A stretch of 29,513 nt of DNA. Origin: a virus (Duplodnaviria; Heunggongvirae; Uroviricota; Caudoviricetes). Below, piece after piece: positions 5,988 to 28,692 of this stretch. A model generated the notes under the pieces. That model was not told where the DNA came from. It did not search any database and saw nothing but the letters and a program-made list of their open reading frames with translations. Position 1 is the stretch's first letter; each line of letters starts with the position of its first letter. Location of the stretch: IMG/VR virus record IMGVR_UViG_2563366805_000003; one strand, 5' to 3'. The translations under genes were made by a program, and so were the position numbers.

Positions 5988-6004
5988 TTCAAACATCTCC
6001 CCAA

Positions 6005-8430: not shown

Positions 8431-8442
8431 CGGAGACTGAAA

Positions 8443-10301: not shown

Positions 10302-10512
10302 AACCTACGATGTGCATATGGATCCCCTCGAACGCACAAGCCAGATCATCACACTGACAGAAGTGATTAATGACATTCTGGTGAGCAACTCTCCCTCACG
10401 AGACGAAAAACTGAAGGCGTTACTCGCGATATTGGATCTCGCCGTTCGTGACGTTCATTTCCTGCTGGAAGGTGGACAAATGCCATGCAAAACGGGGGCA
10501 ACCAATGAATAA
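10288..10512 (+). CDS. hypothetical small protein
   Basis: Internal ATG of ORF 10204-10512 preceded by GGAGGTG; overlaps the previous stop. Confidence 0.5.
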   Translation, partial: WHMIKTYDVHMDPLERTSQIITLTEVINDILVSNSPSRDEKLKALLAILDLAVRDVHFLLEGGQMPCKTGATNE

Positions 10513-10699
10513 CTCAATTAATACCCCTCGCCTTACGTCCGCACTTCAATTAATCGAGCAAGCAGCGGCTGTCCTGCTTGCTGTCAGTCTTTCGGCTGAA
10601 GAGATGGACGCTGCTGATGTCGTGGATGCGATTAAAGCGTGCTCATCTTTGGTTAACGATGCCCGTGCAGAGCTGGTAATTCTTGGGGGTGAAAAATGA
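10505..10699 (+). CDS. hypothetical small protein
   Basis: MNNSINTPRLTSALQLIEQAAAV...; start overlaps the previous gene's end. Confidence 0.45.
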   Translation: MNNSINTPRLTSALQLIEQAAAVLLAVSLSAEEMDAADVVDAIKACSSLVNDARAELVILGGEK

Positions 10700-10959
10700 A
10701 TATCAACTTAATTTATCGTCATCCGTGTGAGCTGGAAATTGAATCATTGCTGGGGCGCGAAGAGCCATATCCAGACACATTCACTCCCGCAGATTGCGCG
10801 ACTGAACGGCTTACCAGAGCGCGCACAGGTCTGGTTCATGTGATGAATGAGATTATTCCCTCGGTGGGAGGGGAACAGGCGACAGTAATCAATAGCTGGC
10901 TACAAAAAGTCACCTCCCTGATAGATATCAGTTTAATCGATGTGGAGAGTGCGAAATGA
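10696..10959 (+). CDS. hypothetical protein
   Basis: 87 aa; ATGA overlap with flanking genes. Confidence 0.5.
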   Translation: MNINLIYRHPCELEIESLLGREEPYPDTFTPADCATERLTRARTGLVHVMNEIIPSVGGEQATVINSWLQKVTSLIDISLIDVESAK

Positions 10960-11177
10960 CCAACATCCAGCTCATTGAAGCGCAATGTCGCATCGAACAG
11001 GTTCAGACTGTTTTAGGGTTCTGGCTTGAAGGGGCCAGCCCAAGCAACAGAGACAAGTTAATGATTGGCGCGGTTATGTCACTGCTCAATGGCGTACCAG
11101 AAGCTATTCAGGAAGCAGACGAATTGTTGGGCAAATATGAGTTACAGAATCATTCAGGCGAGGCGAAACATGAATAA
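10956..11177 (+). CDS. hypothetical protein
   Basis: 73 aa; ATGA overlap with flanking genes. Confidence 0.5.
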   Translation: MTNIQLIEAQCRIEQVQTVLGFWLEGASPSNRDKLMIGAVMSLLNGVPEAIQEADELLGKYELQNHSGEAKHE

Positions 11178-11772
11178 TTTCTTAACTTTCCATGCAGAAG
11201 CAACGCCTGACGGCGTAAACATCATGCACCGCAGCAACGATGGCATGACAGAACGCGTTGAGACCGTCTCATATATTGATGCCGTAAATCGTCTGGATGC
11301 CGGGGATTATGACGATAAACCAGATGAAGGTATGTCAATACATCTCGCTATAGCCGATGGCGGCAACCAGGGATATTTCGATTACACATCACAGCATAAC
11401 GTCATTATGTGGAGATGGCTGATCGCAACAGTATTCATGCTGGAAATGAGAGAGGAAAACGGCACTGTCAGCATCATTGATGATACTGGCAATCCTTCCG
11501 AAGTGGCTGTTTATTCCAACGGCATCGTTGCCATGCCGCTGTATCCAGTAGCAGAGCGCCTCGCTATGGCAAACAACATTGAGGGAGCGATGATAGAACG
11601 TTTTGGCATCGAGTCTGGCACAGAACGCTCCATCATTTTCTACAGAGCCATGATGGATGTGGAACAAGGAGCACTGACTCCATTTGGTCGTGAAACGCTT
11701 GCTGAACTTCACAACAGCTTTATAGCTGAACTGAATGAAAACGGCATGCCATCGGAACCAGTGACGCACTGA
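11170..11772 (+). CDS. hypothetical protein
   Basis: Internal ATG (MNNFLTFHAEATPDG...) preceded by GAGG; 200 aa. Confidence 0.5.
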   Translation: MNNFLTFHAEATPDGVNIMHRSNDGMTERVETVSYIDAVNRLDAGDYDDKPDEGMSIHLAIADGGNQGYFDYTSQHNVIMWRWLIATVFMLEMREENGTVSIIDDTGNPSEVAVYSNGIVAMPLYPVAERLAMANNIEGAMIERFGIESGTERSIIFYRAMMDVEQGALTPFGRETLAELHNSFIAELNENGMPSEPVTH

Positions 11773-11782
11773 GGATGGAACC

Positions 11783-12124
11783 ATGATTACTAAAAATTTC
11801 CGACTGAATGCGCTGGCAAATAAGTATGCGTCGGCACTGTATAACCACATTACCTCCACCAGCGGAGGGGACTATTTCATGGTTGATGCGGACGGCGAGG
11901 CCGTACGTGTGGAAATCGTCAATGGAGTAAAAGGCGTTCGCAGCCTGATCGATAGCTACACACTGGCAGCCATGAAAGTGTTCTACCCGCAGTGGGAAAC
12001 CGTGGGGATCGAGCTTATTGAGCGTTGCGTCACTAAGGACGGATTGACTGACGTCGGGCGTGAGATATGGCAAAGCATGGTTAATGACATGGGCGCAACT
12101 GTAGCGGGAGGTTCTCATGCGTGA
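11783..12124 (+). CDS. hypothetical protein
   Basis: 113-aa ORF preceded by GAGGATGG. Confidence 0.5.
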   Translation: MITKNFRLNALANKYASALYNHITSTSGGDYFMVDADGEAVRVEIVNGVKGVRSLIDSYTLAAMKVFYPQWETVGIELIERCVTKDGLTDVGREIWQSMVNDMGATVAGGSHA

Positions 12125-12488
12125 AAATGCAGAAATGGCGCTTAGCTCCGCAATCGGAGAGCAGGTGGCAAAGATTGCTGGTGCTGTGTGGATTCATAAC
12201 CTTCATTCTACTGGTGAAGAGAAAATGGCAATTCAGACGCCAGAGGGACGCACCATTACTACATCTCTGAAGCCGTCAGATGTTTGTGATCTGATTTGCG
12301 CATTCATGTACCCAGCAATGAGGACTGTCCACGGCGATAAGTGGAAACTTGCGACAACCGCTGAATTTGATATGTGGCTAAACAATGATGGCATGCTGAC
12401 TGATTACGGAATAACCAAGTGGCAGATGCTGGTTAGCCATATCGCAAACGCTATAGACCACGTGGGGTACGGTGATGCGAAACATTGA
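12117..12488 (+). CDS. hypothetical protein
   Basis: 123-aa ORF overlapping the previous and next genes. Confidence 0.5.
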   Translation: MRENAEMALSSAIGEQVAKIAGAVWIHNLHSTGEEKMAIQTPEGRTITTSLKPSDVCDLICAFMYPAMRTVHGDKWKLATTAEFDMWLNNDGMLTDYGITKWQMLVSHIANAIDHVGYGDAKH

Positions 12489-15231
12489 TCTTATCCGTCA
12501 GGTTATCAGTGCGTCTGAAAACAACTGGCCTCATGTGCTGGGCTGCCTGAACATAAATGTCCCTGACTCTCCGCGCCGTCATGCTCCCTGCCCTGCATGT
12601 GGGGGCAAAGATCGATTCCGGTTCGATGACAACGGGCGCGGTAGCTTCATCTGTAATCAGTGCGGCGCTGGTGATGGGCTGGATTTAATTAAACGCGTAA
12701 ATAACTGCGACACAACAGAGGCGGCGCTTCTTGCCGCTGATGTTCTGGGTATTGATTACCGGACAACGGAAACACCAGAAGCCACCAGCCAGAAACGGGA
12801 ACAACTGGAAACCGAGCGCCAGCGACGCGAACAGGAGCGCCTGAAAAGGGCAGAGAAGGACGAACAACAAAGACGGGATACGTTTTCCCGTCAGTTTGAT
12901 GACATGCGCAGAAAGGCTGTAAACGGCAAATCTGATTATCTGGTTGCGAAAGGGGTAGGTGATTTTACATTCCCCGTGTTGCCCGATGGATCTCTGTTGC
13001 TGGCGCTGGTGGATAAATCCGGCGCAGTAACAGCAGCACAGACTATTACCTCACATGGTGAAAAAAGACTCCTGACAGGTTCAGCAAAGCGAGGGGCATA
13101 TCACGCCATAAACGCACCAGAAACAACACAGAGCATCTTAATCGCAGAAGGGCTGGCAACGGCATTATCTGCCCATTTAATGCGTCCAGAGGCGCTGACA
13201 GTGGCGGCGATTGATGCCGGGAACCTGTTATATGTCGCCCAGGTACTGCGGGATAAATTTCCTTCAGCACAAATCATCATTGCTGCGGATAACGACCACA
13301 GCGAAGGAAGACAAAACACGGGGAGAATAGCAGCAGAAAAAGCAGCTTTATCTGTTTCTGGATGGGTGGCATTACCCCCGACAGATCACAAAGCAGACTG
13401 GAATGATTACCACCAAAAACACGGCATTAAATGCGCCACAGAAGCGTTCAATAAGTCAATGTACCAACCACAGGGTAATGGCGTGAAACAGGAGCCACAG
13501 ACCATTGAGGGAAGCGATTTTAAGGTTATGGATACCGATCCACTGAAACCAAGAATAGAAAGCCGCGAGGATGGTATTTATTGGGTATCTCCGAGAGCTG
13601 ACAGCCAGAGTGGAGAAATCATCAATAACGAAAGCTGGTTATGTTCTCCGTTAAGCGTTATCGGTACTGGCAGAGACGATAAAGACCAGTATCTCATTCT
13701 TCGCTGGCTGTCGTTTGGTTCTGAAACGCCGACAACCGCTGCCATTCCACTGGCTGATATTGGTGAACGTGAAGGATGGCGCACACTTAAAGCTGGTGGG
13801 GTAAATGTCACGACCAAAAGCAGCCTCAGAGCAATACTGGCAGACTGGCTACAACGCAGTGGCTCTCGTGAATTGTGGCGTGTTGCTCATGCCACTGGCT
13901 GGCAATGCGGAGCGTACATCATGCCTGATGGGGAAATCATCGGAACACCTGAAAATCCTGTGCTGTTCAGCGGGAGAAGCTCAGCCGCAGCCGGATATAC
14001 CGTCTCAGGGAGCGCGAAAAGCTGGCGTGATAACGTGGCGCGTCTGGCCTTTGGTAACTATTCAATGATGACCGGGATCGGCGCAGCACTGGCAGCGCCA
14101 TTGATTGGGCTGGTGGGCGCTGACGGGTTCGGCATTCATTTCTATGAGCAGTCGAGCGCAGGTAAGACCACCACGGCAAACGTGGCGAGCAGCTTATACG
14201 GCAACCCTGATTTACTGCGGCTGACGTGGTACGGAACCGCGCTGGGGCTGGCAAATGAGGCCGCCGCCCACAATGACGGACTAATGCCGCTTGATGAAGT
14301 TGGTCAGGGCGCTGATCCTGTCAGCGTTTCACAGTCTGCCTATGCGTTATTTAACGGTGTAGGGAAACTGCAAGGCGCTAAAGATGGTGGAAACCGGGAT
14401 CTAAAACGCTGGCGTACAGTGGCAATCAGCACCGGAGAAATGGATTTAGAAACATTTATCGCTACTTCCGGGCGAAAAACCAAAGCCGGGCAACTGGTGC
14501 GACTGCTGAATATTCCGTTGAGTAAAGCAGTACGCTTTCACGATTACCAGAACGGAAAACAGCACGCAGACGCACTGAAAGACGCTTACCAGCATCACCA
14601 CGGCGCGTCCGGGCGTGAGTGGATTAAATGGCTGGCAGACCACCAGCAACAGGCTATTAAAACCGTTCGTGATTGCGAAAGCAGATGGAGAAGCCTGATC
14701 CCATCCGATTATGGTGAGCAGGTTCACCGTGTAGCCGCGCGATTTGCCATTCTGGAGGCCGCATTGTTGTTAGGCGAGGTTGTAACAGGCTGGGATGCTC
14801 AGACATGCCGTGATGCGATACAGCACAGCTATAACGCATGGTTGCGCGAGTTCGGCACAGGTAACAAAGAGCATCAGCAGATTATTGAACAAACGGAGGC
14901 ATTTCTTAATGCCTATGGGCTTAGCCGTTTTGCACCATTTCCATACAGCCCGGCAGATTTGCCCATCAAAGATTTAGCCGGATACCGTCAGCGTGGAGAA
15001 CATGACGAAAGCCCAATGATTTTCTACACATTCCCGGCCACATTTGAAAAGGAGATCGCATGTGGTTTCAACGCAAAACAGTTTGCTGAAGTGTTGAAAA
15101 AAGCCGGGATGCTAACCCCACCAAACAGCGGTCGTGGATACCAAAGAAAATCACCACGTATTCAGGGACGACAAATAAACGTTTATGTACTCAATTACCA
15201 GCCAGGAGATTATAACTCATCTGAAGAATGA
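12472..15231 (+). CDS. primase-helicase (phage P4 alpha-like): zinc-binding primase N-terminus plus P-loop NTPase/helicase C-terminus
   Basis: 919 aa. Zinc finger CPACGGKDRFRFDD...FICNQCGAGDGLDLI is typical of P4 alpha / PICI Pri-Rep primases. Walker A-like GIHFYEQSSAGKTT further on. Iterons follow the stop immediately. Confidence 0.85.
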   Translation: MMRNIDLIRQVISASENNWPHVLGCLNINVPDSPRRHAPCPACGGKDRFRFDDNGRGSFICNQCGAGDGLDLIKRVNNCDTTEAALLAADVLGIDYRTTETPEATSQKREQLETERQRREQERLKRAEKDEQQRRDTFSRQFDDMRRKAVNGKSDYLVAKGVGDFTFPVLPDGSLLLALVDKSGAVTAAQTITSHGEKRLLTGSAKRGAYHAINAPETTQSILIAEGLATALSAHLMRPEALTVAAIDAGNLLYVAQVLRDKFPSAQIIIAADNDHSEGRQNTGRIAAEKAALSVSGWVALPPTDHKADWNDYHQKHGIKCATEAFNKSMYQPQGNGVKQEPQTIEGSDFKVMDTDPLKPRIESREDGIYWVSPRADSQSGEIINNESWLCSPLSVIGTGRDDKDQYLILRWLSFGSETPTTAAIPLADIGEREGWRTLKAGGVNVTTKSSLRAILADWLQRSGSRELWRVAHATGWQCGAYIMPDGEIIGTPENPVLFSGRSSAAAGYTVSGSAKSWRDNVARLAFGNYSMMTGIGAALAAPLIGLVGADGFGIHFYEQSSAGKTTTANVASSLYGNPDLLRLTWYGTALGLANEAAAHNDGLMPLDEVGQGADPVSVSQSAYALFNGVGKLQGAKDGGNRDLKRWRTVAISTGEMDLETFIATSGRKTKAGQLVRLLNIPLSKAVRFHDYQNGKQHADALKDAYQHHHGASGREWIKWLADHQQQAIKTVRDCESRWRSLIPSDYGEQVHRVAARFAILEAALLLGEVVTGWDAQTCRDAIQHSYNAWLREFGTGNKEHQQIIEQTEAFLNAYGLSRFAPFPYSPADLPIKDLAGYRQRGEHDESPMIFYTFPATFEKEIACGFNAKQFAEVLKKAGMLTPPNSGRGYQRKSPRIQGRQINVYVLNYQPGDYNSSEE

Positions 15232-15256
15232 GCTTCTTCATGTGCGTAGAAAAGGT

Positions 15257-15367
15257 GTTGGTTCAGTTGGTTCAGTTGGTTCAATTTGTAAAGAGTATTG
15301 TTTTATAAGGATTTTATTCTTTTTATTGAACCAACACTGAACCAACAACACGGTATTTTGAACCAAC
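15257..15367. repeat. iteron cluster (putative replication origin): 3 tandem GTTGGTTCA (10-bp period), AT-rich spacer, 3 inverted TGAACCAAC
   Basis: GTTGGTTCA at 15257, 15267 and 15277. TGAACCAAC at 15327, 15338 and 15359. Spacer is ATTTGTAAAGAGTATTGTTTTATAAGGATTTTATTCTTTTTAT. Starts 26 bp after the primase stop. Confidence 0.7.
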
Positions 15368-15815
15368 ACAATGTGACTGAATTGATGCGCACAACACCTG
15401 GCTGGCATCAGAGAGTGTTTTACGAGACTTTCGTAAAATCCTGTGTACAAGGGCGTGACGTTTTTGAAAGTGAGCACTACGAAATTTTCGTAGTTCAAAA
15501 AACAGCCTCTGAGAAGTTGTTATGCCTGTTCAGCAAACCATCCGCATAGCTGATCGCGAATCAAATTACCAATGGAGCCAGAAGCAAGGGCAGAACTGAA
15601 AAGCGCCTGCCGTGAAGAGTAATGCGACACCATAAATATAGTTTTTAGAGTCCATAAAAAACCTGTCAAAACCTGACACACAGAACGATGCCACCAGCTA
15701 CTGAGCGGTGGCATTTTTTTGTGCTATTTGTTTCATATTTTGCAATTATGATGATGAATATTGCGATTTGTGAAACTATAATAACTGTTGTTTTATACAG
15801 TTCTAAGGGGGCGTT

Positions 15816-15977
15816 ATGGCTATTTCAGTAAAGCCGGTATTGATAAGTGAGAAGCAAATGGAAGCGATAAAGAAAATTCAGGAAGAGCAGCGTAAAAAAT
15901 CAGGAATTGGAGTAGCGCCAACTCTGCATGAAATTGCACGAGGGTTAATAGATAAGGCGCTGGCAGGCTGTATGTGA
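15816..15977 (+). CDS. hypothetical small protein (53 aa), not in the supplied ORF track
   Basis: ATG at 15816 preceded by AAGGGGGCG. Translation MAISVKPVLISEKQMEAIKKIQEEQRKKSGIGVAPTLHEIARGLIDKALAGCM. Stop at 15975-15977, 16 nt before the next gene. Confidence 0.4.
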   Translation: MAISVKPVLISEKQMEAIKKIQEEQRKKSGIGVAPTLHEIARGLIDKALAGCM

Positions 15978-15993
15978 AAATGGATGGCATCGC

Positions 15994-16455
15994 ATGGAAC
16001 TAAAATTTATTGATAACCCTGTGCGATTACAGGCCTTTCTTAACGAGCCAGGCAATACCGAAAATATTGTTGAGCCGGGGCACACGTACTACATCAAGCC
16101 TGATGCGGTATATCTCGGCATCTACGAAGGATTAGTGCTGGCTGGCGTTCATGAAGTGCGTAACTTCTGGCATAGCGTTGTTGAATGCCATGCGGTGTAC
16201 GACCCCGGATTCCGTGGTGAATATGCACTGCAAGGACATCGATTATTCTGCAAATGGCTTCTCGAAAACTCACCATTCCTTAACAGCATCACTATGGTTC
16301 CTGACACCACGAAATACGGACGGGCAATTATCCGTTTGCTTGGCGCTACCCGTGTTGGTCACCTTGATGATGCTTATATCAGATGTGGTAAACCCGTCGG
16401 CGTAACGCTTTATCAGTTAACTCGGCAACAATATAAGGAATTCAGCGAATGTTAA
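15994..16455 (+). CDS. hypothetical phage-like protein; first gene of the putative ejection-protein cassette
   Basis: 153-aa ORF overlapping the start of the next gene. Confidence 0.5.
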   Translation: MELKFIDNPVRLQAFLNEPGNTENIVEPGHTYYIKPDAVYLGIYEGLVLAGVHEVRNFWHSVVECHAVYDPGFRGEYALQGHRLFCKWLLENSPFLNSITMVPDTTKYGRAIIRLLGATRVGHLDDAYIRCGKPVGVTLYQLTRQQYKEFSEC

Positions 16456-17126
16456 TTACCCATATAGCTCATAAACATCTCAATCGTGCCGTATACGAAA
16501 AAGGCGGTGATGGTGGTGCCTCTAAAGCTCAGGCGAAGGCCCAGCAGCAGGCAATTGATTTGCAGCGCGAGCAGTGGAATACTGTGATGAATAATCTCAA
16601 GCCGTATGCAGAAGTCGGATTGCCTGCTTTACAACAACTGCAAGGACTGATGACTCTGGAAGGGCAGAATAAAGCCGCGAATGATTTCTTTGGTTCTGGT
16701 TTATATAAAACACAGGCAGATCAGGCCCGTTATCAGAACCTTGTCTCAGCAGAAGCTACCGGGGGGCTTGGCTCAACAGCTACCAGTAACCAGTTATCTT
16801 CCATTGCGCCCATGCTTTATAACAATTGGCTTAGTGGGCAAATGCAAAATTATGGAAACCTGCTAAATGTCGGGATGAATGCGGCATCAGGGCAGGCAAC
16901 AGCAGGGCAAAACTACGCCAATAATACCGGGCAACTCTTGCAGGGGCTTGGCGCTATTCGTGCAGGTCAGGCGCAGCAGCCATCCAGTCTTGCGCGTGGT
17001 ATTGGTGGGGCGGCATCAGGCGCTTTAGCGGGTGCGCAACTTGGTTCCGTTGTTCCGGGTATAGGTAATGTCGCCGGGGCTATTGGTGGTGGGCTTATTG
17101 GTCTTGTTGGGGGGCTTGGATTCTAA
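16449..17126 (+). CDS. putative DNA-ejection / internal virion protein, small (gp7-like by size and position), Gly-rich hydrophobic C-terminus
   Basis: 225 aa. C-terminus GAASGALAGAQLGSVVPGIGNVAGAIGGGLIGLVGGLGF is a glycine-zipper-like segment. Stop overlaps the next ATG. Confidence 0.45.
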   Translation: MLITHIAHKHLNRAVYEKGGDGGASKAQAKAQQQAIDLQREQWNTVMNNLKPYAEVGLPALQQLQGLMTLEGQNKAANDFFGSGLYKTQADQARYQNLVSAEATGGLGSTATSNQLSSIAPMLYNNWLSGQMQNYGNLLNVGMNAASGQATAGQNYANNTGQLLQGLGAIRAGQAQQPSSLARGIGGAASGALAGAQLGSVVPGIGNVAGAIGGGLIGLVGGLGF

Positions 17127-18445
17127 TGGCGACATGGCAACTTGGCGGGCTGCCTAGCATGGCACCGCAAAATGATAATGCTCCTCGTTCTTCCGTTCCT
17201 CAGCCTGTGCAGTATCAGCAGCAGCCAAACGTAGGTTTAATGGCGCTACAGGGGCTAAGAGGCGTTGCTGAGATTAATCAGCAGGCGCAAATTTCCCAGC
17301 AGCTAAAAGAATATCAGGCACGGTTGGGTAGTGCGGTAGCTAATAATGATCGTGTTGGCGTGCAGAAGTTAATGGCCCAGTATCCCCAGTTTATGGCTGA
17401 TTCTCAAAAACAGATGGGATTCATTGATGCTGAGCAAAATCGGCAGACCGCTGACGCTGCCATGAATCTGCGTCTTGCGTCACAAACTGGAGATCCACTG
17501 ACCATGCAGAAGGCCATTCAGCAGGCAAATCCAGTATTACAGCGATTTGGTCTTCCTGCTGAAGAGGTTTATCAGTCTTGGCAGAATGACCCACAGGAAT
17601 TCAACAGAATCACTGACCTCATCCACCTCCATGCTGATCCAAATAGTTACTTTAGTGTTCAAGAGAAGCAGCAAGGGCAGAGTATTGCACAGCAGAACGC
17701 AGATACATCTGCATATAATGCTCAGGTTAATGCGGAGCAGGGTAATCGGCGTCTCGATATGGAGCAGTTCAAAGTCATATCCGATAACCAACTACGCACG
17801 AGAGAAATGGTTCTGAAAGCACGACTTGGACGTGCTCAAAATGACATCGAGAGAGACAAGCTCAATGCTGAACTGAGCAAGGTACAGCAGGCGAAAGTGG
17901 AGAAGATGAACGATAAAATTAATACTGTTGCAGGTAATATCGACTCCTTGAACTCTGCGCTTGAAGTGGGTCATGAACTGGCGGGAATTGTAGGGAAACA
18001 TCCTTCGGCCGTTACCCGTTCGCAGAACTATAACCCCCTGACGCTGGGGTTTGGATTCCTCCCTGATGTAGCAGAAGACACACGAAGCCTACGCGCCAAA
18101 GCTGATGAATACAACCTAAAGGTTATTCTGCCTAGCCTAAAAGGTACTTTTGGCTCTAACCCAACCGAAGGGGAAAGGGCTGCCCTTATGCAATCTCAAA
18201 ATGGCATTAAGTCAGCAACCAGCAATGAGGCATTTTTGCGAGAGTTGAATAAAGCGCAGGACGTAATTATTCGAATGCAGAAACGACAGATTGCCGGGCT
18301 CGGTATTCCTGTAACCAAATCTAAGGACGAAGAAACTGATACCAAAATGCTGTTGCAGGATCCTTCACTGGTTAAGGATTATGTGACCGCACATGGCTAT
18401 CTGCCGGAAAGTTACTATCAGGCAAAACTTAAGGGATGGCAATGA
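17126..18445 (+). CDS. putative DNA-ejection / internal virion protein, middle (gp20-like by size), Gln-rich
   Basis: 439 aa, Q-rich with coiled-coil-like stretches. Translationally coupled on both sides. Confidence 0.45.
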   Translation: MATWQLGGLPSMAPQNDNAPRSSVPQPVQYQQQPNVGLMALQGLRGVAEINQQAQISQQLKEYQARLGSAVANNDRVGVQKLMAQYPQFMADSQKQMGFIDAEQNRQTADAAMNLRLASQTGDPLTMQKAIQQANPVLQRFGLPAEEVYQSWQNDPQEFNRITDLIHLHADPNSYFSVQEKQQGQSIAQQNADTSAYNAQVNAEQGNRRLDMEQFKVISDNQLRTREMVLKARLGRAQNDIERDKLNAELSKVQQAKVEKMNDKINTVAGNIDSLNSALEVGHELAGIVGKHPSAVTRSQNYNPLTLGFGFLPDVAEDTRSLRAKADEYNLKVILPSLKGTFGSNPTEGERAALMQSQNGIKSATSNEAFLRELNKAQDVIIRMQKRQIAGLGIPVTKSKDEETDTKMLLQDPSLVKDYVTAHGYLPESYYQAKLKGWQ

Positions 18446-21162
18446 TGGCACAACTGACAGAAAAACAGAAAGCCTATTCCCGTCATCTCGATGAAAAATA
18501 TGGTTTCCCATCAGGGACGATGGAAACATTAGTTGGCAATGAATCTAGTGGTAACGGAAGTGCCGAGTCACCGAAAGGAGCTAGAGGATTTGCTCAACTG
18601 ATGCCCTCAGTAATGAGTGATGCTGGTTATCGTGGAACAGATCCGCGCTCACTGCCATTTGAAAAGCAAATGGATATCGCAGCAAACCATCTCAATAAAG
18701 GAATGAAGCGATTTGGTGATATAGGTATGGCATTGGCTGGGTATAATTCTGGCTATGCTCGTATTAATGCCGTAAGAAACGGTAAATCTACACTGCCAGA
18801 TGAAACGGCTAATTACGTAAGTAAATTTGCAGATGCCGGAATAATCCCTGATGACAGTGAAATCTTGCAGTTTGCACAAACCAGTCAACATCGCAATCTT
18901 CAGCAGCCTGACTACTCAGAGCTTGATAAAGAAATCTCTCAGGTGGGAGATATTTCTGCATGGGAAGCAAAACGTCAGCAATTTAAGAACATAGAAGCAG
19001 GACTACCAACAGCCAGTTCATGGGAGCAGAAAAGAGCTCAGTTTCTCGCCGATGAAAATGCCGGGGAACCGCAGCAGCAAGTAGCCAAGTCTAACCTTAA
19101 TCCTGAGATGGAATATCTTTCGCCAGGACTGAAAGCTGCGCCAGAGCAGATGGCCAGAGGGATTGCTAATATACCGTTTGATGTAATGGACGCAGGCGTG
19201 GGGGTAGTCAATGCGGCGCAATCAGCCGGAGCATGGGCAGCTCAGAAGCTTGGTGTGGGTGATGGCACATACACGCCCATATCACCTGTCTTTCGCCCAG
19301 TAGACCAACCTACAGATCCATACGCGCAGGCTGGTGAGCAGCTAGCACCTTACCTTATTACAGGATTAGGTGCAGGAAAGGCAGCTACCGCAGCTTCTTC
19401 AGTTGCCAACGCTCCACGTGCTGAACGTGCGGCCACAAAGGTGGCTAGTATGTTGGCAGAAAACCTGCCAGGTACATTGGTGAACGCCCAAAAGAACGGG
19501 CAGATCAGCCCAGAAGACCTAGCAAAAGAGACAGGTATTGGCCTAGCAGGATCGCTAGGAGCACGCGCTTTAATAAAGAGCGGACAGACAGCCAGTGACG
19601 TAATGCGAGATGTATTGCGGAGTAATACAAATCAATCAGGCCATGTGTTAGGGGCAGCAAATACTCTGGAAACCGCCAATGATGTATCGAAAGCAGCGCG
19701 TTCTGCCGTAGGCCGAGAGCATATCGCATCGCAGGCATCAAACGTCAGAGATGATGTCGCTAAGGCGGCGAAAATCACTGGTATTAATATCAACACCCTG
19801 ACGCCTGGAATGCGCTCAGGTAGTCGTGGAATTGCCCAAGCAGAAGGTGTTCTGGCATCAACTCCTGGGAATGTTCAGGATGCTCACCTTACGGCCTTCA
19901 ATGAAATATCCTCAAAGTTGAATAAGCAGTTGTCTGATTTCGGTGCTGAGTCTGGAAGCGCATCAGAAAAAAGCGCAGCAATTAAAGAGCGCATCATCGC
20001 GAGCCTCAGTGATATGAAAACAGCAGAGAATATGGCATGGGCAGAACTGCGAAGCACGATGCCACGCGAAAGGATGAAAATGAGTAATGGGATGGCTGTC
20101 GTCCAAGCAGAAAAAGCAGCCAATGTTCCACTCAGCCCGGAGATGAAACAGTTTCAGGCTGCCAACAACCAAGGTGGCGGCATAACCTTCGACGGGATGA
20201 AGGCATGGCGTGCTAAGTTTGCTGATGCTGAACAAGCAAACACCCGGGCAGGTAAGGCCAATGCCGCCCGGATTGCCGGAGAAATGCGCAGAGCTATCAC
20301 TGATGACATGCGCATCATGGCTGAAAAAGGAAACTTCCTCACAGAATGGCAGAAAGCTAACGATCTCTCTAAAAGTTACATTATCGCCAAACAAAATGCC
20401 GAATCTGTTTTTGGTCGAGATCTCGCATCAGACGCTATGGTAAGAAAAGGTGCCGATACGCTTAAGGCATCCGCAAACACTGGAACTGGAGCTTTTCACC
20501 GTCTTATCTCCGCGCTGCCGGAAGCAGAACGCCAACCAGCAATAGCATCTATTCTTCAGCATGCTGTGGCGCAGGGAGAGAAGGGAGGAATCGGTGAAGA
20601 GTCTGGTATCCAGTATTTTGCCAAGCTCATGACCCAGCAGAATGTAAACGCCATCAGTCGTCATGCGCCAGATCTCGGTAGAATGATGAAAGAGTTCGGT
20701 GTACTCGCTAAAGCCAGCACCAGACCGCAGCGATACGTAGAGCGCACGGGAAGAACAACTGAGGCTCTCAAAACGCTCGATTCAGGCCTTCCAAAGATCG
20801 TCGGCGTGATTATGAACGGAGTTCAACAGTCAGGTGCGATCGCTGGAGGCTTTGGCGGTGGTGTAATTGGTTCGATTAGTGGTTTGGTTGCTGGTGGCGC
20901 GCTGAGAAATACTGTGGCTAAGATTGGGGCGACAAGAAGTGGTAGGTATGCGATAGAGAAAGCCGTTCAGGAAGCTACAAAAGCAGTGCGCGCAGGGGCA
21001 TCACCAGCAGCGATCGCCGCAGCAGAGAAACGATTTTCGGCCAATAAAATTGCCATGAAAGCAATTCGTGATGCCGTTGGGGCTGAAGAATTCGTGAAAC
21101 TGACAAGGGCCGGGATTGTAGCTACCCTCAGTGGCATGAAAGATGTTAGCGAATGGGAATAG
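18436..21162 (+). CDS. large virion-associated protein with N-terminal lytic transglycosylase (SLT) domain
   Basis: 908 aa. SLT signature GNESSGNGSAESPKGARGFAQLMPSV ... LAGYNSGYARINAV (ES / GLMQ-like / YN-G motifs). Long alpha-rich C-terminus with a Gly-rich segment GAIAGGFGGGVIGSISGLVAGGAL. Confidence 0.7.
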   Translation: MAMMAQLTEKQKAYSRHLDEKYGFPSGTMETLVGNESSGNGSAESPKGARGFAQLMPSVMSDAGYRGTDPRSLPFEKQMDIAANHLNKGMKRFGDIGMALAGYNSGYARINAVRNGKSTLPDETANYVSKFADAGIIPDDSEILQFAQTSQHRNLQQPDYSELDKEISQVGDISAWEAKRQQFKNIEAGLPTASSWEQKRAQFLADENAGEPQQQVAKSNLNPEMEYLSPGLKAAPEQMARGIANIPFDVMDAGVGVVNAAQSAGAWAAQKLGVGDGTYTPISPVFRPVDQPTDPYAQAGEQLAPYLITGLGAGKAATAASSVANAPRAERAATKVASMLAENLPGTLVNAQKNGQISPEDLAKETGIGLAGSLGARALIKSGQTASDVMRDVLRSNTNQSGHVLGAANTLETANDVSKAARSAVGREHIASQASNVRDDVAKAAKITGININTLTPGMRSGSRGIAQAEGVLASTPGNVQDAHLTAFNEISSKLNKQLSDFGAESGSASEKSAAIKERIIASLSDMKTAENMAWAELRSTMPRERMKMSNGMAVVQAEKAANVPLSPEMKQFQAANNQGGGITFDGMKAWRAKFADAEQANTRAGKANAARIAGEMRRAITDDMRIMAEKGNFLTEWQKANDLSKSYIIAKQNAESVFGRDLASDAMVRKGADTLKASANTGTGAFHRLISALPEAERQPAIASILQHAVAQGEKGGIGEESGIQYFAKLMTQQNVNAISRHAPDLGRMMKEFGVLAKASTRPQRYVERTGRTTEALKTLDSGLPKIVGVIMNGVQQSGAIAGGFGGGVIGSISGLVAGGALRNTVAKIGATRSGRYAIEKAVQEATKAVRAGASPAAIAAAEKRFSANKIAMKAIRDAVGAEEFVKLTRAGIVATLSGMKDVSEWE

Positions 21163-21312
21163 ACGCTCTAACTAACAAAACCATAATAGCCAAGGACGGC
21201 ATACTGATATTGAGCCAACTATCAAAATTCCATATCACATTACGGGCCTGTGGCTTACATTCGCTTACAGTGATGATAATTTATAACCACGCAATTCTTA
21301 GGTGAGATTATC

Positions 21313-22011
21313 ATGATTAAAAATCTTCTTTTAATATTATCCCTGTCATTATTGGCTGGATGCGTACAAAAACCGTTAGTAACGGTCAATGCTTTATCTT
21401 CCGGGCAATCTGTCGGTAAGAAGTTCTTGATCATCCCCGCAAGCCAAGAACTTTGGAACACCAAACAGATTGAATACACTCAAATAGCTACGGTAGTAGC
21501 CGCCAGTTTATCAAGCCAAGGATATACACAAGTTAAAGATGAAAAATTGGCTGACCAGGTAATTCTCTTGAACTTTTTGAGAAGCGGGGCCATTTCAAAT
21601 ACTCGTAATGTAACCATCCCAATATACGGGCAAACTGGTGTGAGCTCAGCAACAACGTACGGAAACTCGAACACCACGTTCAATAGTTATGGTGGTGGCT
21701 ACGGTACAGCTAATACCACTGGAACGGCAACAACAGTTTATACGCCTACTTATGGAATTACTGGCGCGTATAACACAACTGTGACGGACACGTTCTACGG
21801 CGCAGGGGTGATACTCCAGTCGTTTGATGCCAAGGCTTATCTCAATAATAGGCAGATTAATATGTTATGGAAAGTTGGTAGCTCAGTCGTCTCGCAACAG
21901 TCTGATGGAATTGCTGATTACAAGGGGTTGGCGAGAATAGCCGCTAGCTATGCCGGGAAAAATACAGAAGGTGATATAACTTTTAATGTTGACCCTAAAG
22001 CACCAAATTAA
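21313..22011 (+). CDS. lipoprotein (signal peptide plus lipobox LLAGC), Thr/Gly/Tyr/Asn-rich; possible surface exclusion lipoprotein
   Basis: MIKNLLLILSLSLLAGCVQ fits a signal peptidase II lipobox. Low-complexity T/G/Y/N-rich middle. AT-rich gene with its own terminator. Confidence 0.65.
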   Translation: MIKNLLLILSLSLLAGCVQKPLVTVNALSSGQSVGKKFLIIPASQELWNTKQIEYTQIATVVAASLSSQGYTQVKDEKLADQVILLNFLRSGAISNTRNVTIPIYGQTGVSSATTYGNSNTTFNSYGGGYGTANTTGTATTVYTPTYGITGAYNTTVTDTFYGAGVILQSFDAKAYLNNRQINMLWKVGSSVVSQQSDGIADYKGLARIAASYAGKNTEGDITFNVDPKAPN

Positions 22012-22018
22012 CTAATAA

Positions 22019-22040
22019 GCCCGGTACGCCGGGCATTTAT
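22019..22040 (+). terminator. rho-independent terminator of the lipoprotein gene
   Basis: GCCCGG-TACG-CCGGGC hairpin followed by ATTTAT, 8 nt after the stop codon. Confidence 0.6.
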
Positions 22041-22871
22041 GCCCCTATTATTCATGAATCGCTTTTTCTAGAAGGTATGCGACAAACGTTAAGTGACATT
22101 GCCTACACATTCGGGGCGGGATTTCAAATCCGCTCCCAGTTGATGGGGGGCGTTACAGTACGCGCATATCCGCTTTATGTGAAACAGGAAGATTTTTCTG
22201 ATATCACTGCCACAGCAAAACACCAATTTCGTGACCAGTACGCGCGCGAGGGGTATCAGTTGCAAAAAATTTTGCAACTACGTCCGACCAGTACGCACAC
22301 GATGGCGGGGGATACCATGAAACTGTTCTCTACACGAGACAGAGTGGTGGTGATGTGTTGATTATCGGCGTATATGCGCACAGGACGCGCTATGACAATG
22401 TTTTATGCGGGTACACCAATCACATGTATCTGGTGTGATAAATCGCGTTACATGACCTCTCATGTTGTGCTGGTGGTTATCACGACGTTCTGAATCTGGC
22501 TTTTGTCTGATATTTTGCGACAAGTACGCGCGCGTAACATCGAAATTATCGGATGGCGTATGTTGCTGGCAAGATAAAGTCGGCGTAATACAAAGGCGTT
22601 ACTTGATAGCAGCAAGATTACAACAATGGTTGTTGAATTTGAGCGATGTAAGGAATTGATTTAGGGAGGCGCTGATGGCTAAAAAGTTCCACTACCAGCG
22701 GATGAATGCGCCAGCGATGGCCGTTTGGTAGTAAAAGAGGAGCCATTCCTCAATCAGTTGAATACATTATGCCAACTAAATGGGTGGGGGCACTGTGTGG
22801 GTATTCAGCGGTGACGGTATTTTTTAAGCCAAGGACTATCCGTAGCAGGGGGACTCATTTTGAAATATTTA

Positions 22872-23309
22872 TCATATGTAACTTATTATTTTAGATAAAG
22901 ATTTCCAGTTAAAGAAAAAAGTTATCATTGATATAATCAAATATGCCCCTGCGAGTAGCAGGGCATAATAATCCAGAGGCAGATTGCTGACAACAGGGGC
23001 AAACATCGAGATCATTGCTAATAGGCAGGCTGTGATCAGCGTAGTTCCTGTATCAAAAAGCCCCTCAATAATGCCTTTTAGTACTCCGTTACTTTTTAGA
23101 GCGCCTACAATTCCCTTTGAACTATCAAAGCTACTTAGCATGGTGACTGATGCCAAAACAAAACCAAAGAGAACTCCAGAAATAGTTGAAAGAGCACCAG
23201 CAGCCGAAATGACAGCATTGTGATCTAGGTCGTGTAAAAAATGGGCACCAGCAATAGCCATAGCTAGAGCAAACAATGACTTGGCAGCAAACAATTTCCG
23301 AGAACTCAT
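22872..23309 (-). CDS. small integral membrane protein, about four predicted TM helices; second gene of a two-gene operon
   Basis: 145 aa with four hydrophobic stretches: FALAMAIAGAHFL, ISAAGALSTISGVLFGFVLASVTML, TTLITACLLAMISMFAPVV, YYALLLAGAYLIISMITFFF. RBS AGGAAT; 12-nt gap after the upstream gene. Confidence 0.65.
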   Translation of the reverse strand: MSSRKLFAAKSLFALAMAIAGAHFLHDLDHNAVISAAGALSTISGVLFGFVLASVTMLSSFDSSKGIVGALKSNGVLKGIIEGLFDTGTTLITACLLAMISMFAPVVSNLPLDYYALLLAGAYLIISMITFFFNWKSLSKIISYI

Positions 23310-23321
23310 AATGTATTCCTG

Positions 23322-24407
23322 TTACGTTTGACTAACCAAATAGTACTGGGTTAGATACCTAAGGTTGTCATTCTTTGCTTGTAGCATAGCATTTTTAACG
23401 TCAGTATCGGTCGGATACCCATCTGCTTGGATAGGCACCATCTTCTTTACCGTAAGAACTTCGTCTACAAGACTTTTCTTCTTTTTATCGCCCTGAGCAA
23501 CAACATTTGCTTTCTCAAAAGTTAAACGACCATCACCACCAGGGAACTTTTCTAGCATCTCCTTAAGGCTTTTTTTAACGTCATCCTCAAGCCATCCCTT
23601 TGCTTTTCTTTTTAATGGAGAATGTCCGCGTAACGAAATAGTCAGGTGGCTTGAACTGGTGCCTCTGATCATCTCAATCATCTGATTCGCGAACATTCCA
23701 TCGAGTTGATACTGTGCGGCATTGAAGTTTCTTGGGATGGCCACAGAAATCTCGCAGCTTCTTAGATTGGATCCAGTTTCGAGTAGTTCTTTGATGCTTT
23801 CTTCTTTCCAAATGGCTTCAAAAGAAACAGGGACTCCGCGATCACTGGAGTTGAAAAGAAGGAAGGCTAAGTCACTATGGCGTGGACCTAAATGATTTAA
23901 AGACAATACTAGAATGTCTGTCTGAGGATAATAAATAAAGTATGTACGTTCTGAAAGAGTCTTTGCCCCGGCTAGAGGGATTTTCTCTTCCACCCACTCT
24001 TTATCTGTAATATATGCCAGTGTTGCGCTTTTTCTTCTTCGAGACATGAATCCGAAGTAGGAGCCATCCTCGGGTGAGATGTCTAGAAAATGAATTTTAA
24101 GTTCTCTTTCACCAAAGTCTGCATAGTGGGTCATCTTGAAGTCTTTAGAACACCGATCATACAGATTTTTAAAGGCCTCTGCGGTTAACCCCTTGTTACT
24201 AGTGCGAATATTCTCAGAGCTTGTGTAAAAGCCCACCCTTACAGATTTCAAACTTTGATCTTTTGGTGCCACAGTCATTTGAGCTCCATTGTACTCTGCG
24301 ATAGTTTTTGCACACCTTGAAATCAAAATCTCCATGTCAGTCACGAGAAAATAACTATGGATGAAACCCATCAAAGGCATTGAATACAGGTGGCTTTTGA
24401 GAATCAT
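23322..24407 (-). CDS. hypothetical cytoplasmic protein, no recognisable motif; first gene of the two-gene operon
   Basis: 361-aa ORF on the minus strand, no signal peptide or TM segment. AT-rich relative to the flanks. A long upstream non-coding region includes the second iteron cluster. Confidence 0.6.
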   Translation of the reverse strand: MILKSHLYSMPLMGFIHSYFLVTDMEILISRCAKTIAEYNGAQMTVAPKDQSLKSVRVGFYTSSENIRTSNKGLTAEAFKNLYDRCSKDFKMTHYADFGERELKIHFLDISPEDGSYFGFMSRRRKSATLAYITDKEWVEEKIPLAGAKTLSERTYFIYYPQTDILVLSLNHLGPRHSDLAFLLFNSSDRGVPVSFEAIWKEESIKELLETGSNLRSCEISVAIPRNFNAAQYQLDGMFANQMIEMIRGTSSSHLTISLRGHSPLKRKAKGWLEDDVKKSLKEMLEKFPGGDGRLTFEKANVVAQGDKKKKSLVDEVLTVKKMVPIQADGYPTDTDVKNAMLQAKNDNLRYLTQYYLVSQT

Positions 24408-24748
24408 CCTAACCTGGTGACGGTGGTTCGCATATCCTGATGGATGATCAGTGATTAATCAATGCGCCAAGCAGATGTGTCTATGTGTTTGTTAATCATT
24501 GCATGACAGTAGATCGACATGGGAGATCACGTTATATAGTTGAATTGTTAGGATATCCATGCACCGATCAACTGACTAGGCTGATGTGCTTTTTAGCAGG
24601 TGCCATATAGTAGTTAGGCGGTTCTGTGAAATGATTACTGTTCCAGCATAACTGCGGCATAAAGCGGTGCTATATAAGCTATTTGCTGGCGGATTTAGTC
24701 TTCACCGTTAATATATGTAGTGACTATTTGACAGAGTGTTAGTTCACG

Positions 24749-24848
24749 GACACTTTTTGTTGGTTCAAAATGAGTTGATGTTGGTTCAATATTTTAGAAA
24801 AAACACAATAAAAACAACGCTCTTTACAAATTGAACCAACTGAACCAA
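24749..24848. repeat. second iteron cluster, inverted relative to 15257-15367: 2 GTTGGTTCA, AT-rich spacer, 3 tandem TGAACCAAC
   Basis: GTTGGTTCA at 24749 and 24770. TGAACCAAC at 24822, 24831 and 24840. The reverse complement of 24808-24862 is near-identical to 15246-15300. Confidence 0.7.
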
Positions 24849-24894
24849 CTGAACCAACACCTTTTTGCTTATCTATATAATCTGAGAGGCAGAA

Positions 24895-25176
24895 ATGATA
24901 AGGGACAGGAAAGCTGAAGAGCTGGAGTCAAAAGGGCTATACCGGAGAGCTGCCGCACGATGGATGGAAGTCATGCTGTTATGCACCGAGGACGATGATC
25001 GGGAATGGATAAAGCGCCGCCGTGAAACGTGTCTGGAGAACGTGAAGCGCCCGCCCGTGAAGGTTGAGGAATTTGGCGACCTGCATAAAGCTGTTACCGA
25101 AACGCAACACCGCATGGGGATAGCGCAACCGAACGGTAACGCCTTCCGGTTAAATGGCGGCAAGAGGCAAAGGTAG
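24895..25176 (+). CDS. PerC-family transcriptional activator-like protein
   Basis: 93 aa. MIRDRKAEELESKGLYRRAAARWMEVM matches the recalled PerC/Pch N-terminal signature (AEELE..G.YRRAA.RW). Confidence 0.55.
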   Translation: MIRDRKAEELESKGLYRRAAARWMEVMLLCTEDDDREWIKRRRETCLENVKRPPVKVEEFGDLHKAVTETQHRMGIAQPNGNAFRLNGGKRQR

Positions 25177-25473
25177 ACCACCAGAGGGAAATCATCCTCT
25201 GGCTGGCGGTTTCTGGTATTTCGGGACAAGTACGCGCACGCGTAGCACCCAATCGGTGAGGAAATAGCGGCGACCTGAATGGTCAAAATCACAACGCAGC
25301 TATCCCCGTAAGCATCGCTTAACGGAATAGCAGTAACCTGAATCCAGTGGGGAGGGGGTAGTCAAATCTCTACAGGCCTGACTATCCGGGACTGCCCGCC
25401 CCATCGTTTTTTTATACCCGCGAAAAATGAAATTTAATCCGGGCGTGTTTCATCCTTCCAGAGGGTATGACGT

Positions 25474-25659
25474 ATGACACCACGCGAAATAGCCTTATTG
25501 ACCATCGCCAAACTTGAGCACGGAGGCCACCAGCTTACACAGGCAGATCAACGGGAGATAGAACGATCAGTTAATGCCGATATAGCCCGGCGCGACAGGT
25601 TCCGCGAAATGATGCGAGCACCTGCCTACCAGTGGAAGAAGCCAGCGCCGCGCAGGTAG
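25474..25659 (+). CDS. hypothetical small basic protein
   Basis: 61-aa ORF with plausible RBS GAGGGT. Confidence 0.35.
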   Translation: MTPREIALLTIAKLEHGGHQLTQADQREIERSVNADIARRDRFREMMRAPAYQWKKPAPRR

Positions 25660-25779
25660 ATATGGGATTATTCCACATGTAACTTATGCGTATTAAGCAA
25701 ATTTCCTTTATTCACCTTTACAGAATTGTGAGTACGTCAGTATCGTTATCCTTCCGATTCGCATTTATTCAGGATTTGC

Positions 25780-26322
25780 ATGTACCAGCTAAAGATAACC
25801 ATCCGAGACAGCAAACCACCTATATGGCGGCGTGTGCTGGTTCCAGAGCAAATCCCCTTTAGTAAACTTCATGCCGTGATCCAGTTAGCTTTTGGCTGGA
25901 ATGACGAACACCTGTATATGTTCGAGAAAGGGCGTAAAGGTGATCCAGGTAGCGAGTATCGCGTATGGGGTGAGGATGAAAGCATGGGTAACGCGGCAAT
26001 CACGCCACTATGGGCGGCGCTCCAGAATGAGGGTGACAAGCTGGTTTACACGTATGACTTTGGCGACTGGTGGGATTGCGTCATTGTGCTGGAGAAGCAA
26101 ACACACGATACGAGTAATCAGCCCATTAGCTGCCTGCGTGGGAAAGGCACCACCCCGGCGGAAAACTCAGGCGGCTTGCATGGTTACAATGAATTGCTAT
26201 TACAGGCCAGAGAGTCTGATAATCCTGAGCAGGCCGAGATCCACAATTTCCTGATGCTGGATATTGAACGCCGGGTTTACGACCTGAGCCGCATCAACGA
26301 CAGATTGCAGGCTATTAACTGA
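25780..26322 (+). CDS. pRiA4b ORF-3-like family protein
   Basis: 180 aa. MYQLKITIRDSKPPIWRRVLVPEQIPFSKLHAVIQLAFGWNDEHLYMF...YTYDFGDWWDCVI fits the recalled PRiA4_ORF3 pattern (YxLK..PPIWRR, FGW, DFGDWW). Confidence 0.6.
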   Translation: MYQLKITIRDSKPPIWRRVLVPEQIPFSKLHAVIQLAFGWNDEHLYMFEKGRKGDPGSEYRVWGEDESMGNAAITPLWAALQNEGDKLVYTYDFGDWWDCVIVLEKQTHDTSNQPISCLRGKGTTPAENSGGLHGYNELLLQARESDNPEQAEIHNFLMLDIERRVYDLSRINDRLQAIN

Positions 26323-26674
26323 CCCGCATGTATTCACCTGATATTGCGTTATCAGCGCCGCCAGTATCGCGCATAACAGCACAATGACCGGGTAAACCGT
26401 AACGCACGACCGTTGCGTTAGTCTCACCGCCGCGCCGTATCTGGCGCGATTCATACACTGTCACCCGCTCAAGCAGTCCACCAGCAACCATGCTTTCCAG
26501 TGTGCGCCGGGTTGATTCGAGCTGGTGACGCTTATCGAACGACACCATGCCATGAAGCAGGTAGGCCACACCCGACACATCGAACGGCGGCGCACCAATC
26601 TCACCAGTCACCCATTCGAGGTTATCCGGTTCAAAGTAGCTAAGTATCTCTTTTTTGCGGCTGGTCATTCTCAT
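26315..26674 (-). CDS. hypothetical protein
   Basis: 119-aa ORF converging on the previous gene, 8-nt overlap. Confidence 0.4.
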   Translation of the reverse strand: MRMTSRKKEILSYFEPDNLEWVTGEIGAPPFDVSGVAYLLHGMVSFDKRHQLESTRRTLESMVAGGLLERVTVYESRQIRRGGETNATVVRYGLPGHCAVMRDTGGADNAISGEYMRVS

Positions 26675-27272: not shown

Positions 27273-27952
<680 letters not shown>

Positions 27953-27970
27953 TACAGTTCTCCACTATTG

Positions 27971-28192: not shown

Positions 28193-28200
28193 GTAATACC

Positions 28201-28677: not shown

Positions 28678-28692
28678 CTGTTGCTCCTTCGG

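Follow-up and report, generated by a model that had tools for sequence, protein, structure and literature searches.

Homologues of the P22 DNA-ejection cassette within a ~21-kb Escherichia coli phage satellite of the EcCIMP1 family

The IMG/VR virus record IMGVR_UViG_2563366805_000003 is a stretch of 29,513 nucleotides, referred to here in its entirety as the window, which contains a satellite element of 20,915 bp (5971-26885). The element is bounded by an attachment (att) core, TCCTATTATC, at 5971 and 26876; this core is found twice in the window against 0.04 matches expected. Four consecutive genes of this ~21-kb E. coli phage satellite are confirmed here as real homologues of the DNA-ejection cassette of phage P22. 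The proteins encoded by the open reading frames (ORFs) were searched against the Pfam and PHROG profiles, together with a PADLOC scan, and each of the four cassette proteins matches the profile of its P22 family:

15994-16455, plus strand: P22 gp14 homologue (DUF2824, 'head morphogenesis'), 153 aa; PF11039 at 1.5e-61, phrog_651 at 1e-66
16449-17126, plus strand: P22 gp7 homologue (ejection protein), 225 aa; PF25688 P22_gp7 at 1.9e-72, phrog_598 at 1.2e-69
17126-18445, plus strand: P22 gp20 homologue (ejection protein), 439 aa; PF16928 Inj_translocase at 3.7e-22, phrog_917 at 3e-44, and phrog_2534
18436-21162, plus strand: P22 gp16-family ejection protein with an N-terminal SLT lytic transglycosylase domain, 908 aa; SLT and phrog_770

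A sequence-only reading of this DNA had described four translationally coupled genes of these lengths as an ejection cassette, and the genes exist as described. Their tight coupling is real because the junctions overlap: the ATG of the gp7 gene (16449) lies within the gp14 gene, whose stop is at 16453-16455, the gp7 and gp20 genes meet in TAATG at 17124-17128, and the gp20 and gp16 genes share ATGA at 18442-18445. The label of ejection cassette holds for gp7, gp20 and gp16, but the first gene encodes a homologue of gp14, which is not one of the three classical ejection proteins. RefSeq relatives of the gp16-family protein begin at 18442, giving 906 aa. Its lytic transglycosylase domain, also part of that reading, is borne out by PF01464 at residues 17-119 (1.1e-12, 48 bits against a cut-off of 21.3) and by phrog_342 (2.5e-16), and the SLT motifs can be read in the translation as NES (Glu36), GARGFAQLM and GYNSG. 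The protein has the motif set of a Family 1 lytic transglycosylase (catalytic Glu-Ser, GLMQ-like and AYNxG-like), from which activity is predicted. Beyond this domain, phrog_770 ('DNA transfer protein') covers residues 189-864 at 1.8e-120, and close relatives of the protein carry PF26808 Phage_P22_gp16. Sequence searches of the PDB with gp7, gp20 and gp16 gave no match.

The cassette is P22-like because its profiles, order and spacing match those of P22, Kapi1 and Dewey. The phage cassettes compared were genes 14, 7, 20 and 16 of P22 and the corresponding regions of Kapi1, Dewey, CUS-3, epsilon34 and HK620. As in the needle-14-7-20-16 block of P22, Kapi1 and Dewey, the satellite genes run in the order 14-7-20-16, abut or overlap and have the same overlapping starts. 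What differs is the position, for the phage cassettes stand behind the tail-needle gene in a virion-assembly operon, whereas the satellite cassette comes after a primase, origin iterons and a 53-aa ORF. Unlike the P22-like phages, the satellite cassette is not accompanied by coat, portal, scaffold, terminase or tailspike genes. The gp14 protein is 84% identical to Kapi1_055 (83% at the DNA level) and gp7 is 57% identical to Kapi1_056, but gp20 reaches no more than 25-28% identity with the version of any deposited phage. The gp16 protein is 47-52% identical to those of Dewey, Huey, CUS-3 and epsilon34, with 47% identity across 97% of its length to the Dewey and Huey proteins, and 24% identical to that of Kapi1. 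The SLT-gp16 fusion is also present in the true phages Dewey and Huey and in a Serratia prophage. The suggested likeness to T7-like cassettes does not extend past the SLT domain. T7 gp16 is likewise a large ejected protein with an N-terminal SLT domain, which accounts for the phrog_342 match (residues 9-217), but the remainder of the 908-aa protein is of the P22 gp16 family, no homologues of T7 gp14 or gp15 are present and the partner genes belong to the P22 gp7 and gp20 families. A T7-like internal virion cassette was therefore rejected.

The element that carries the cassette is already known, because it is 98% identical to the published EcCIMP1. Against the EcCIMP1 region of E. coli MP1, positions 5971-22579 are 98.2% identical and positions 24736-26885 are 98.6% identical, with the four-gene cassette included, and the gene order, att core and thrW site are the same. 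EcCIMP1 is a phage-inducible chromosomal island (PICI) of 19,963 bp at tRNA-Thr with the same att core (Pick, Stadel & Raivio, ISME J 2025; PMC11773190). It excises from MP1 as a unit, only on induction of the P22-like podovirus Kapi1 and with a requirement for int and alpA, and is specifically transduced by Kapi1 (PMC11773190). It also adds superinfection immunity to Kapi1 lysogens, for which the Kapi1 prophage is needed too (PMC11773190). Helper-dependent excision, replication and transfer are thus published for EcCIMP1 and would be expected of the window copy by likeness. With its att-bounded structure and its identity to a Kapi1-induced and Kapi1-transduced island, the element supports the view, offered as one of two options in the sequence-only reading, of a satellite that carries its own ejection proteins.

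The content of the element agrees with a PICI. It has the int, alpA and primase order and the flanking att repeats that define these islands, which are ~10-20 kb in size. No ORF of 5971-26885 matched a capsid, portal, terminase, tail or lysis family in Pfam or PHROG, and the RefSeq annotation of near-identical copies is also free of such genes, so that the absence of capsid, portal, terminase and tail genes noted at the outset is upheld. The same scans of the element found no TerS-like or Rpp-like protein. A P4-like satellite was rejected since no ORF matched the Psu, Delta or Sid families in Pfam or PHROG (a cos site was not specifically searched for), and a capsid-forming PICI was rejected since major capsid, portal, protease and terminase genes are absent in these scans. 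Classical Gram-negative PICIs such as EcCICFT073 and EcCIEDL933, together with the Staphylococcus aureus pathogenicity islands (SaPIs), share the int-alpA-primase backbone, the helper-dependent induction and the piracy of virions, but redirect packaging by means of Rpp, TerS, cos sites or capsid-size proteins. A literature search revealed no classical Gram-negative PICI or SaPI reported to encode ejection proteins, and a search for satellites with such proteins turned up the EcCIMP1 paper alone. There, genes _017 to _019 are said to resemble 'DNA transfer' and DUF2824 proteins, with a possible role in packaging (PMC11773190). The explicit reading of these genes as a complete gp14-7-20-16 ejection cassette is absent from that paper.

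The cassette is under strong purifying selection. Compared with the copy of Leclercia adecarboxylata, the ratio of nonsynonymous to synonymous substitution rates (dN/dS) is 0.073 for gp14, 0.072 for gp7, 0.065 for gp20 and 0.079 for gp16, at a dS of ~1.0-1.8, and none of the four ORFs is interrupted in any copy compared. A search of genome contigs with gp20 returned two loci, and the protein database was more fruitful. The gp20 lineage (at least 70% identity) extends to Salmonella, Pectobacterium and Serratia, in each case with an int-alpA-(Bro/AntA)-DUF4222-primase-cassette-PerC layout, so that the arrangement of primase followed by cassette is indeed shared with related elements of other genomes; in all, the layout is seen in five genera and at two sites of integration. 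In true P22-like prophages, where it follows the portal, scaffold, coat and needle genes, the cassette is found only at 45% (Serratia) and 38% (Providencia) gp20 identity, and one of these two prophage cassettes has the SLT-gp16 fusion. To judge from these comparisons, the cassette is a long-standing satellite lineage and not a recent fragment, because of the purifying selection, the satellite layout that is maintained across genera and the divergence from the phage versions.

Within this lineage the last two genes of the cassette are exchanged. In many E. coli genomes the match to the cassette, at ~99% identity, stops after its first 1293 nt. Strain 98234, representing a second type, has the same backbone and the same gp14 and gp7 proteins (WP_000420674 and WP_000909175) as the window type, together with a gp20 of 473 aa and a gp16 of 701 aa that shows no BLASTP similarity to the window gp16 and has its nearest phage relatives in N7 and HZ41 (67%). 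A third type (L139) keeps the gene layout with a 432-aa gp20 and a 705-aa gp16 unrelated to that of type 2. This gp16 is 41% identical to the Kapi1 protein, with an N-terminal stretch of ~180 residues that is nearly identical. The comparisons indicate that on a single satellite backbone the gp20-gp16 pair is exchanged as a unit, with three or more unrelated types involved, an observation that is new here. Moreover, a lineage with a DUF5906 replicase (L131, E. coli AR_0017, 10588-14159) keeps gp20 and gp16 alone, without gp14 or gp7. In a survey of 5426 complete E. coli genomes, in which the window type was scored as present when at least 80% of the query was covered, 72 carry the window type and 299 carry type 2. 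In P22 itself gp16 and gp20 must be cognate, as non-cognate combinations give non-infectious particles, yet whole foreign sets of ejection proteins assemble into P22 virions and function (Leavitt et al.; PMC10883804). The SieA exclusion protein acts on the same two proteins (PMC10883804).

Just downstream of the operon lie motifs that resemble the packaging (pac) sites of P22-like phages:

22156-22538, plus strand: cluster of pac-like motifs, with TTTCGnGAC(A/C)AGTACGCGC at 22224, 22277 and 22510, a partial copy at 22156 and a P22-type GAAGATTTTTCTGATATCAC at 22188
25216-25240, plus strand: isolated further Kapi1-type pac-like motif, from the motif scan

The motif core ACMAGTACGCRC is present four times in the window (22234, 22287, 22520 and 25226), all on the plus strand, against 0.02 copies expected. 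By k-mer sharing, the sole 14-mer common to the element and the Kapi1 terS region is GCGACAAGTACGCG, whereas ordinary blastn of the element against Kapi1 aligned the gp14/gp7 region only and revealed no pac mimic. Because the copies sit in different reading frames of a dubious ORF, the motif is one of the DNA itself. Other E. coli satellites have it at the corresponding place, as does Leclercia. The TerS of phage Gally is 99% identical to that of Kapi1, and the Gally copy of the motif is at LF82 1,019,183-193, ~30-40 bp from the published peak of packaging-start coverage at 1,019,224, inside terS (PMC9928086). A TerS only 43% identical to that of Kapi1 (L116) retains CGCGACAAGTACGCGCGCG at the same position. 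When IMG/VR was scanned with the 14-mer, at least 120 stretches matched, 18 of them in Kapi1-type terS genes, and these 18 represent essentially one allele because their TerS proteins are at least 98% identical to that of Kapi1.

The arrays of the relatives are likewise found just downstream of the ejection operon (L132, 15035-15606; L005, 14823-15400; L135, 14598-14824). Those of E. coli carry the motif that is internal to terS in Kapi1, HK620 and Gally. In the Salmonella satellite this location is occupied by nine direct repeats of a 28-mer, between which copies of the Kapi1-type motif are interspersed. Of the nine, GAAGGTTTATCTGATGTCACTACGCGAG comes closest to the P22 pac site annotated in RefSeq, agreeing with the site and the six bases that follow it at 24 of 28 positions, and the remaining repeats are 71-79% identical to this one. 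In Serratia the P22-type motif is present three times, and both types are present in Leclercia. The P22 pseudo-pac consensus, which was derived from experiments (PMC11226127), is matched exactly within the Salmonella and Leclercia arrays and with one mismatch at window position 22189. From their resemblance and position the arrays are proposed, for the first time here, to be pac-site mimics, some of which would span two TerS specificities. They offer a testable answer to the question of packaging left open by the EcCIMP1 paper. Separately, a single P22-pac-like sequence, GAATGTTTTTGTGGAGTCACTACACGAG, lies at 9672-9699 (minus strand) inside an ash-family gene, on the strand opposite to the main array, and is kept at the same place in all of the E. 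coli satellites examined.

The reading that is favoured, and held to be reasonably probable, is that the element is an EcCIMP1-family, PICI-type satellite of P22-like podoviruses whose operon supplies a complete P22-type ejection set and the gp14 assembly factor, as a conduit of its own within virions built by the helper. A single operon behind the replication module would comprise the small ORF, gp14, gp7, gp20, the SLT-gp16 fusion and a lipoprotein. Once the helper is induced, AlpA would turn on the satellite, leading to its excision and replication. The cassette would then be expressed and its products loaded into helper-built procapsids, beside or in place of the ejection proteins of the helper; such loading is plausible because foreign sets work in P22 (PMC10883804). 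The helper terminase would recognise the pac-like array downstream of the operon and package about two satellite copies per headful, two copies amounting to 41.8 kb (2 x 20.9) against headful steps of 40.1 kb in Gally (PMC9928086). The cassette proteins would thereby be present in virions and be released on infection. In the next cell, the satellite gp7, gp20 and gp16 proteins may form the trans-envelope conduit, with the SLT domain cutting the peptidoglycan. A gp20-gp16 pair of its own would free the entry step from whichever helper gave the capsid, and may also help the satellite to evade injection blocks of the SieA type.

Several points weigh against this reading. Ejection proteins enter procapsids ahead of the DNA, and because of this the satellite cannot reserve its proteins for its own particles. 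Kapi1 transduces EcCIMP1 at low frequency and its titres are not reduced by the island (PMC11773190), which means that competition for procapsid loading is not evident. The SieA proteins of P22 and HS1 exclude phages with several divergent sets of ejection proteins (PMC10883804), and hence evasion by mere divergence is not guaranteed. The pac interpretation is based on sequence resemblance and position, and within terS genes the Kapi1-type motif also codes for a conserved stretch of TerS, RDKYA, so that its conservation there may be due to the peptide. Pick et al., moreover, proposed a packaging role for the genes instead (PMC11773190).

The main rival to a delivery conduit is a role in immunity or interference, in which the ejection proteins, or the lipoprotein transcribed with them, act in the resident cell to poison the conduit of incoming P22-like phages or to spoil helper progeny. 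The added superinfection immunity of Kapi1 lysogens with EcCIMP1 would then have an explanation, and the reading fits with satellite gp20 and gp16 proteins that are 24-26% identical to those of Kapi1, given the non-infectious P22 particles produced by non-cognate pairs (PMC10883804), as well as with a lipoprotein (21313-22011) that has no relatives in Pfam, PHROG, PADLOC or phage tblastn searches. Yet Kapi1 titres after induction are unaltered by EcCIMP1 (PMC11773190), the immunity phenotype requires the Kapi1 prophage too, and a decoy would not need a full conserved four-gene set that includes gp14 and is kept by strong purifying selection from genus to genus; the explanation is regarded as unlikely. 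Rather less probable is the suggestion of Pick et al. that the genes serve capsid assembly or DNA packaging of the satellite and not ejection. The cassette does occupy the usual position of a PICI packaging module (PMC11773190), and 'head morphogenesis' is the label of DUF2824/phrog_651. For three of the four proteins, however, the family is one that a P22 ejection protein (gp7, gp20 or gp16) defines, and when these genes are mutated in P22 the particles still fill with DNA but are defective at injection (PMC10883804). The lack of a TerS-like or Rpp-like protein in the Pfam and PHROG scans also counts against it, and the pac-like arrays beside the operon are a separate candidate for packaging specificity.

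There is very little to recommend the idea that the cassette is a functionless remnant of a degraded P22-like prophage fused to an island, the second option of the sequence-only reading. The genes are of phage origin, as the DNA-level identity of gp14 to Kapi1 attests. Against this, the ORFs are intact with a dN/dS of 0.065-0.079, the flanking needle, tailspike, sieA and arc/ant genes have left no remnants, the layout recurs across the five genera and two integration sites, and the element excises as a unit in MP1. Direct core-gene flanks argue in the same direction, for in HCP6S3_I2 (L001) the satellite stands alone between thrW and core genes, and in CV839-06 (L141) a satellite with the full cassette but a different integrase lies between yicC and dinD, flanked by core genes. 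A mosaic with a degraded podovirus prophage is accordingly not sustained. SLT domains also occur in VirB1-type and tape-measure proteins, from which it might be supposed that the SLT protein and its neighbours belong to a conjugation/type IV secretion or tape-measure system. Such homology, which the sequence-only reading had named as grounds for abandoning the ejection assignment, was not encountered in the Pfam and PHROG searches of the four proteins; the best family matches are all to P22 ejection proteins (with phrog_770 covering most of gp16), full-length gp16 homologues sit directly after gp20 in P22-like phages, and the element is without type IV secretion or tape-measure genes. This last explanation is considered negligible.

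Known satellites target capsid size, the specificity of terminase or late transcription, or build their own capsids. It is proposed, tentatively, that the present family follows a distinct strategy of piracy, stealing the capsid, tail and terminase from P22-like phages while providing its own trans-envelope conduit. The gp20-gp16 pair would be swapped among the three or more types by recombination with phages, for compatibility with the recipient or for escape from SieA-like blocks, and the multi-TerS arrays of pac mimics would allow the use of different helpers. If true, the entry step would join the list of stages controlled by satellites. The family would also provide a natural system for studying how foreign ejection proteins load into P22-type procapsids, and whether the type of ejection protein sets the range of transfer against superinfection exclusion. 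Since the family is common, is spread over several enterobacterial genera and carries PerC-type virulence regulators with variable cargo, its rules of transfer matter for gene flow in gut Enterobacterales.

Between the att cores the gene order is int, alpA, a 143-aa ORF, antA, DUF4222, an ash-family gene, small ORFs, the Toprim/DUF927 primase, the cassette, the lipoprotein gene, a variable region, perC and a PRiA4_ORF3 gene. The features outside the cassette and the pac-like motifs are as follows:

5942-5987, plus strand: attL, in which the att core TCCTATTATC (5971-5980) lies in an incomplete 3' half of tRNA-Thr; aligned with the 3' end of thrW in HCP6S3_I2
6153-7367, plus strand: tyrosine integrase with Arm-DNA-bind_3, Phage_int_M and Phage_integrase domains
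7796-7999, plus strand: AlpA-family regulator (master activator in EcCIMP1); Phage_AlpA at 7.4e-20
8443-9276, plus strand: AntA/AntB antirepressor-family protein; PF08346 at 2.6e-21
9445-10512, plus strand: ash-family gene with an in-frame stop at codon 246 in this copy, from the translation
12472-15231, plus strand: primase/helicase (zinc ribbon, Toprim and DUF927), from Pfam matches
15257-15370, no strand assigned: origin-like iterons downstream of the primase, GTTGGTTCA three times, an AT-rich spacer and TGAACCAAC three times
15816-15977, plus strand: small 53-aa ORF heading the cassette operon; WP_001018524 in relatives, no family match in Pfam or PHROG
21313-22011, plus strand: lipoprotein (lipobox LAGC, from the sequence), last gene of the operon; conserved in L001, MP1, L132 and L141
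22872-24407, minus strand: variable cargo of the hotspot, genes for a membrane protein of 145 aa (phrog_8552) and a protein of 361 aa (phrog_7651), from PHROG
24731-24865, no strand assigned: second, inverted TGAACCAAC iteron block; inverted-repeat arms of 55 nt, 96% complementary
24895-25176, plus strand: PerC-family regulator; PF06069 at 3.7e-30
26876-26885, plus strand: attR core TCCTATTATC, the second copy of the core

Upstream of the operon are a terminator-like hairpin (15697-15712) and a consensus -10 box, TATAAT, at 15777-15782 with a poor -35, and the terminator scan placed a strong terminator at 22019-22044 behind the lipoprotein gene. The middle of the lipoprotein is rich in Thr, Gly and Tyr, and the protein is a candidate source of the superinfection immunity associated with EcCIMP1. 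The two inverted TGAACCAAC blocks bracket the ejection operon and the hotspot, and resemble a replication origin with a second cis site, as with ori and crr of P4, or a shared operator. The hotspot (22580-24735) is not common to EcCIMP1 or L001; in EcCIMP1 it carries alpA_1 in place of the phrog_7651 and phrog_8552 genes of the window element, and in other copies it holds an Abi-family gene or a second alpA. The membrane proteins encoded beside gp16 in the window (22872-23309) and in L007 (18721-19158) were compared with SieA and have no similarity to P22 SieA or to each other. The window element further differs from EcCIMP1 in the stop within its ash-family gene, which is intact (355 aa) in HCP6S3_I2 and CV839-06 and disrupted in another way in MP1.

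Unlike EcCIMP1, the window element lies in a tandem array, between the end of a prophage and CP4-6-like genes. To the left of attL (1-5940) are a pin invertase (158-748), a PD-T4-3 GIY-YIG defence gene (809-1522, 3.5e-127), an IS3 element (1589-2760) and a low-GC gene of 488 aa (4082-5548) with only faint LmuA and WYL matches. In strain E8 the pin and GIY-YIG genes form the right end of a complete lambda-like siphovirus prophage. A full morphogenetic module just outside the window, which the sequence-only reading would have held against a satellite, is therefore probably present on this side, but as a separate tandem insertion beyond attL; this lambda-like prophage is not of a kind that relies on P22 ejection proteins. 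To the right of attR (27273-29364, minus strand) the translations, read without profiles, show CP4-6-like genes for a CbtA/YeeV-type toxin, an antitoxin, RadC and an antirestriction protein. The prophage end, the satellite and the CP4-6-like genes are separate insertions at thrW, and with neighbours on both sides of the satellite at least three elements stand in tandem at this site.

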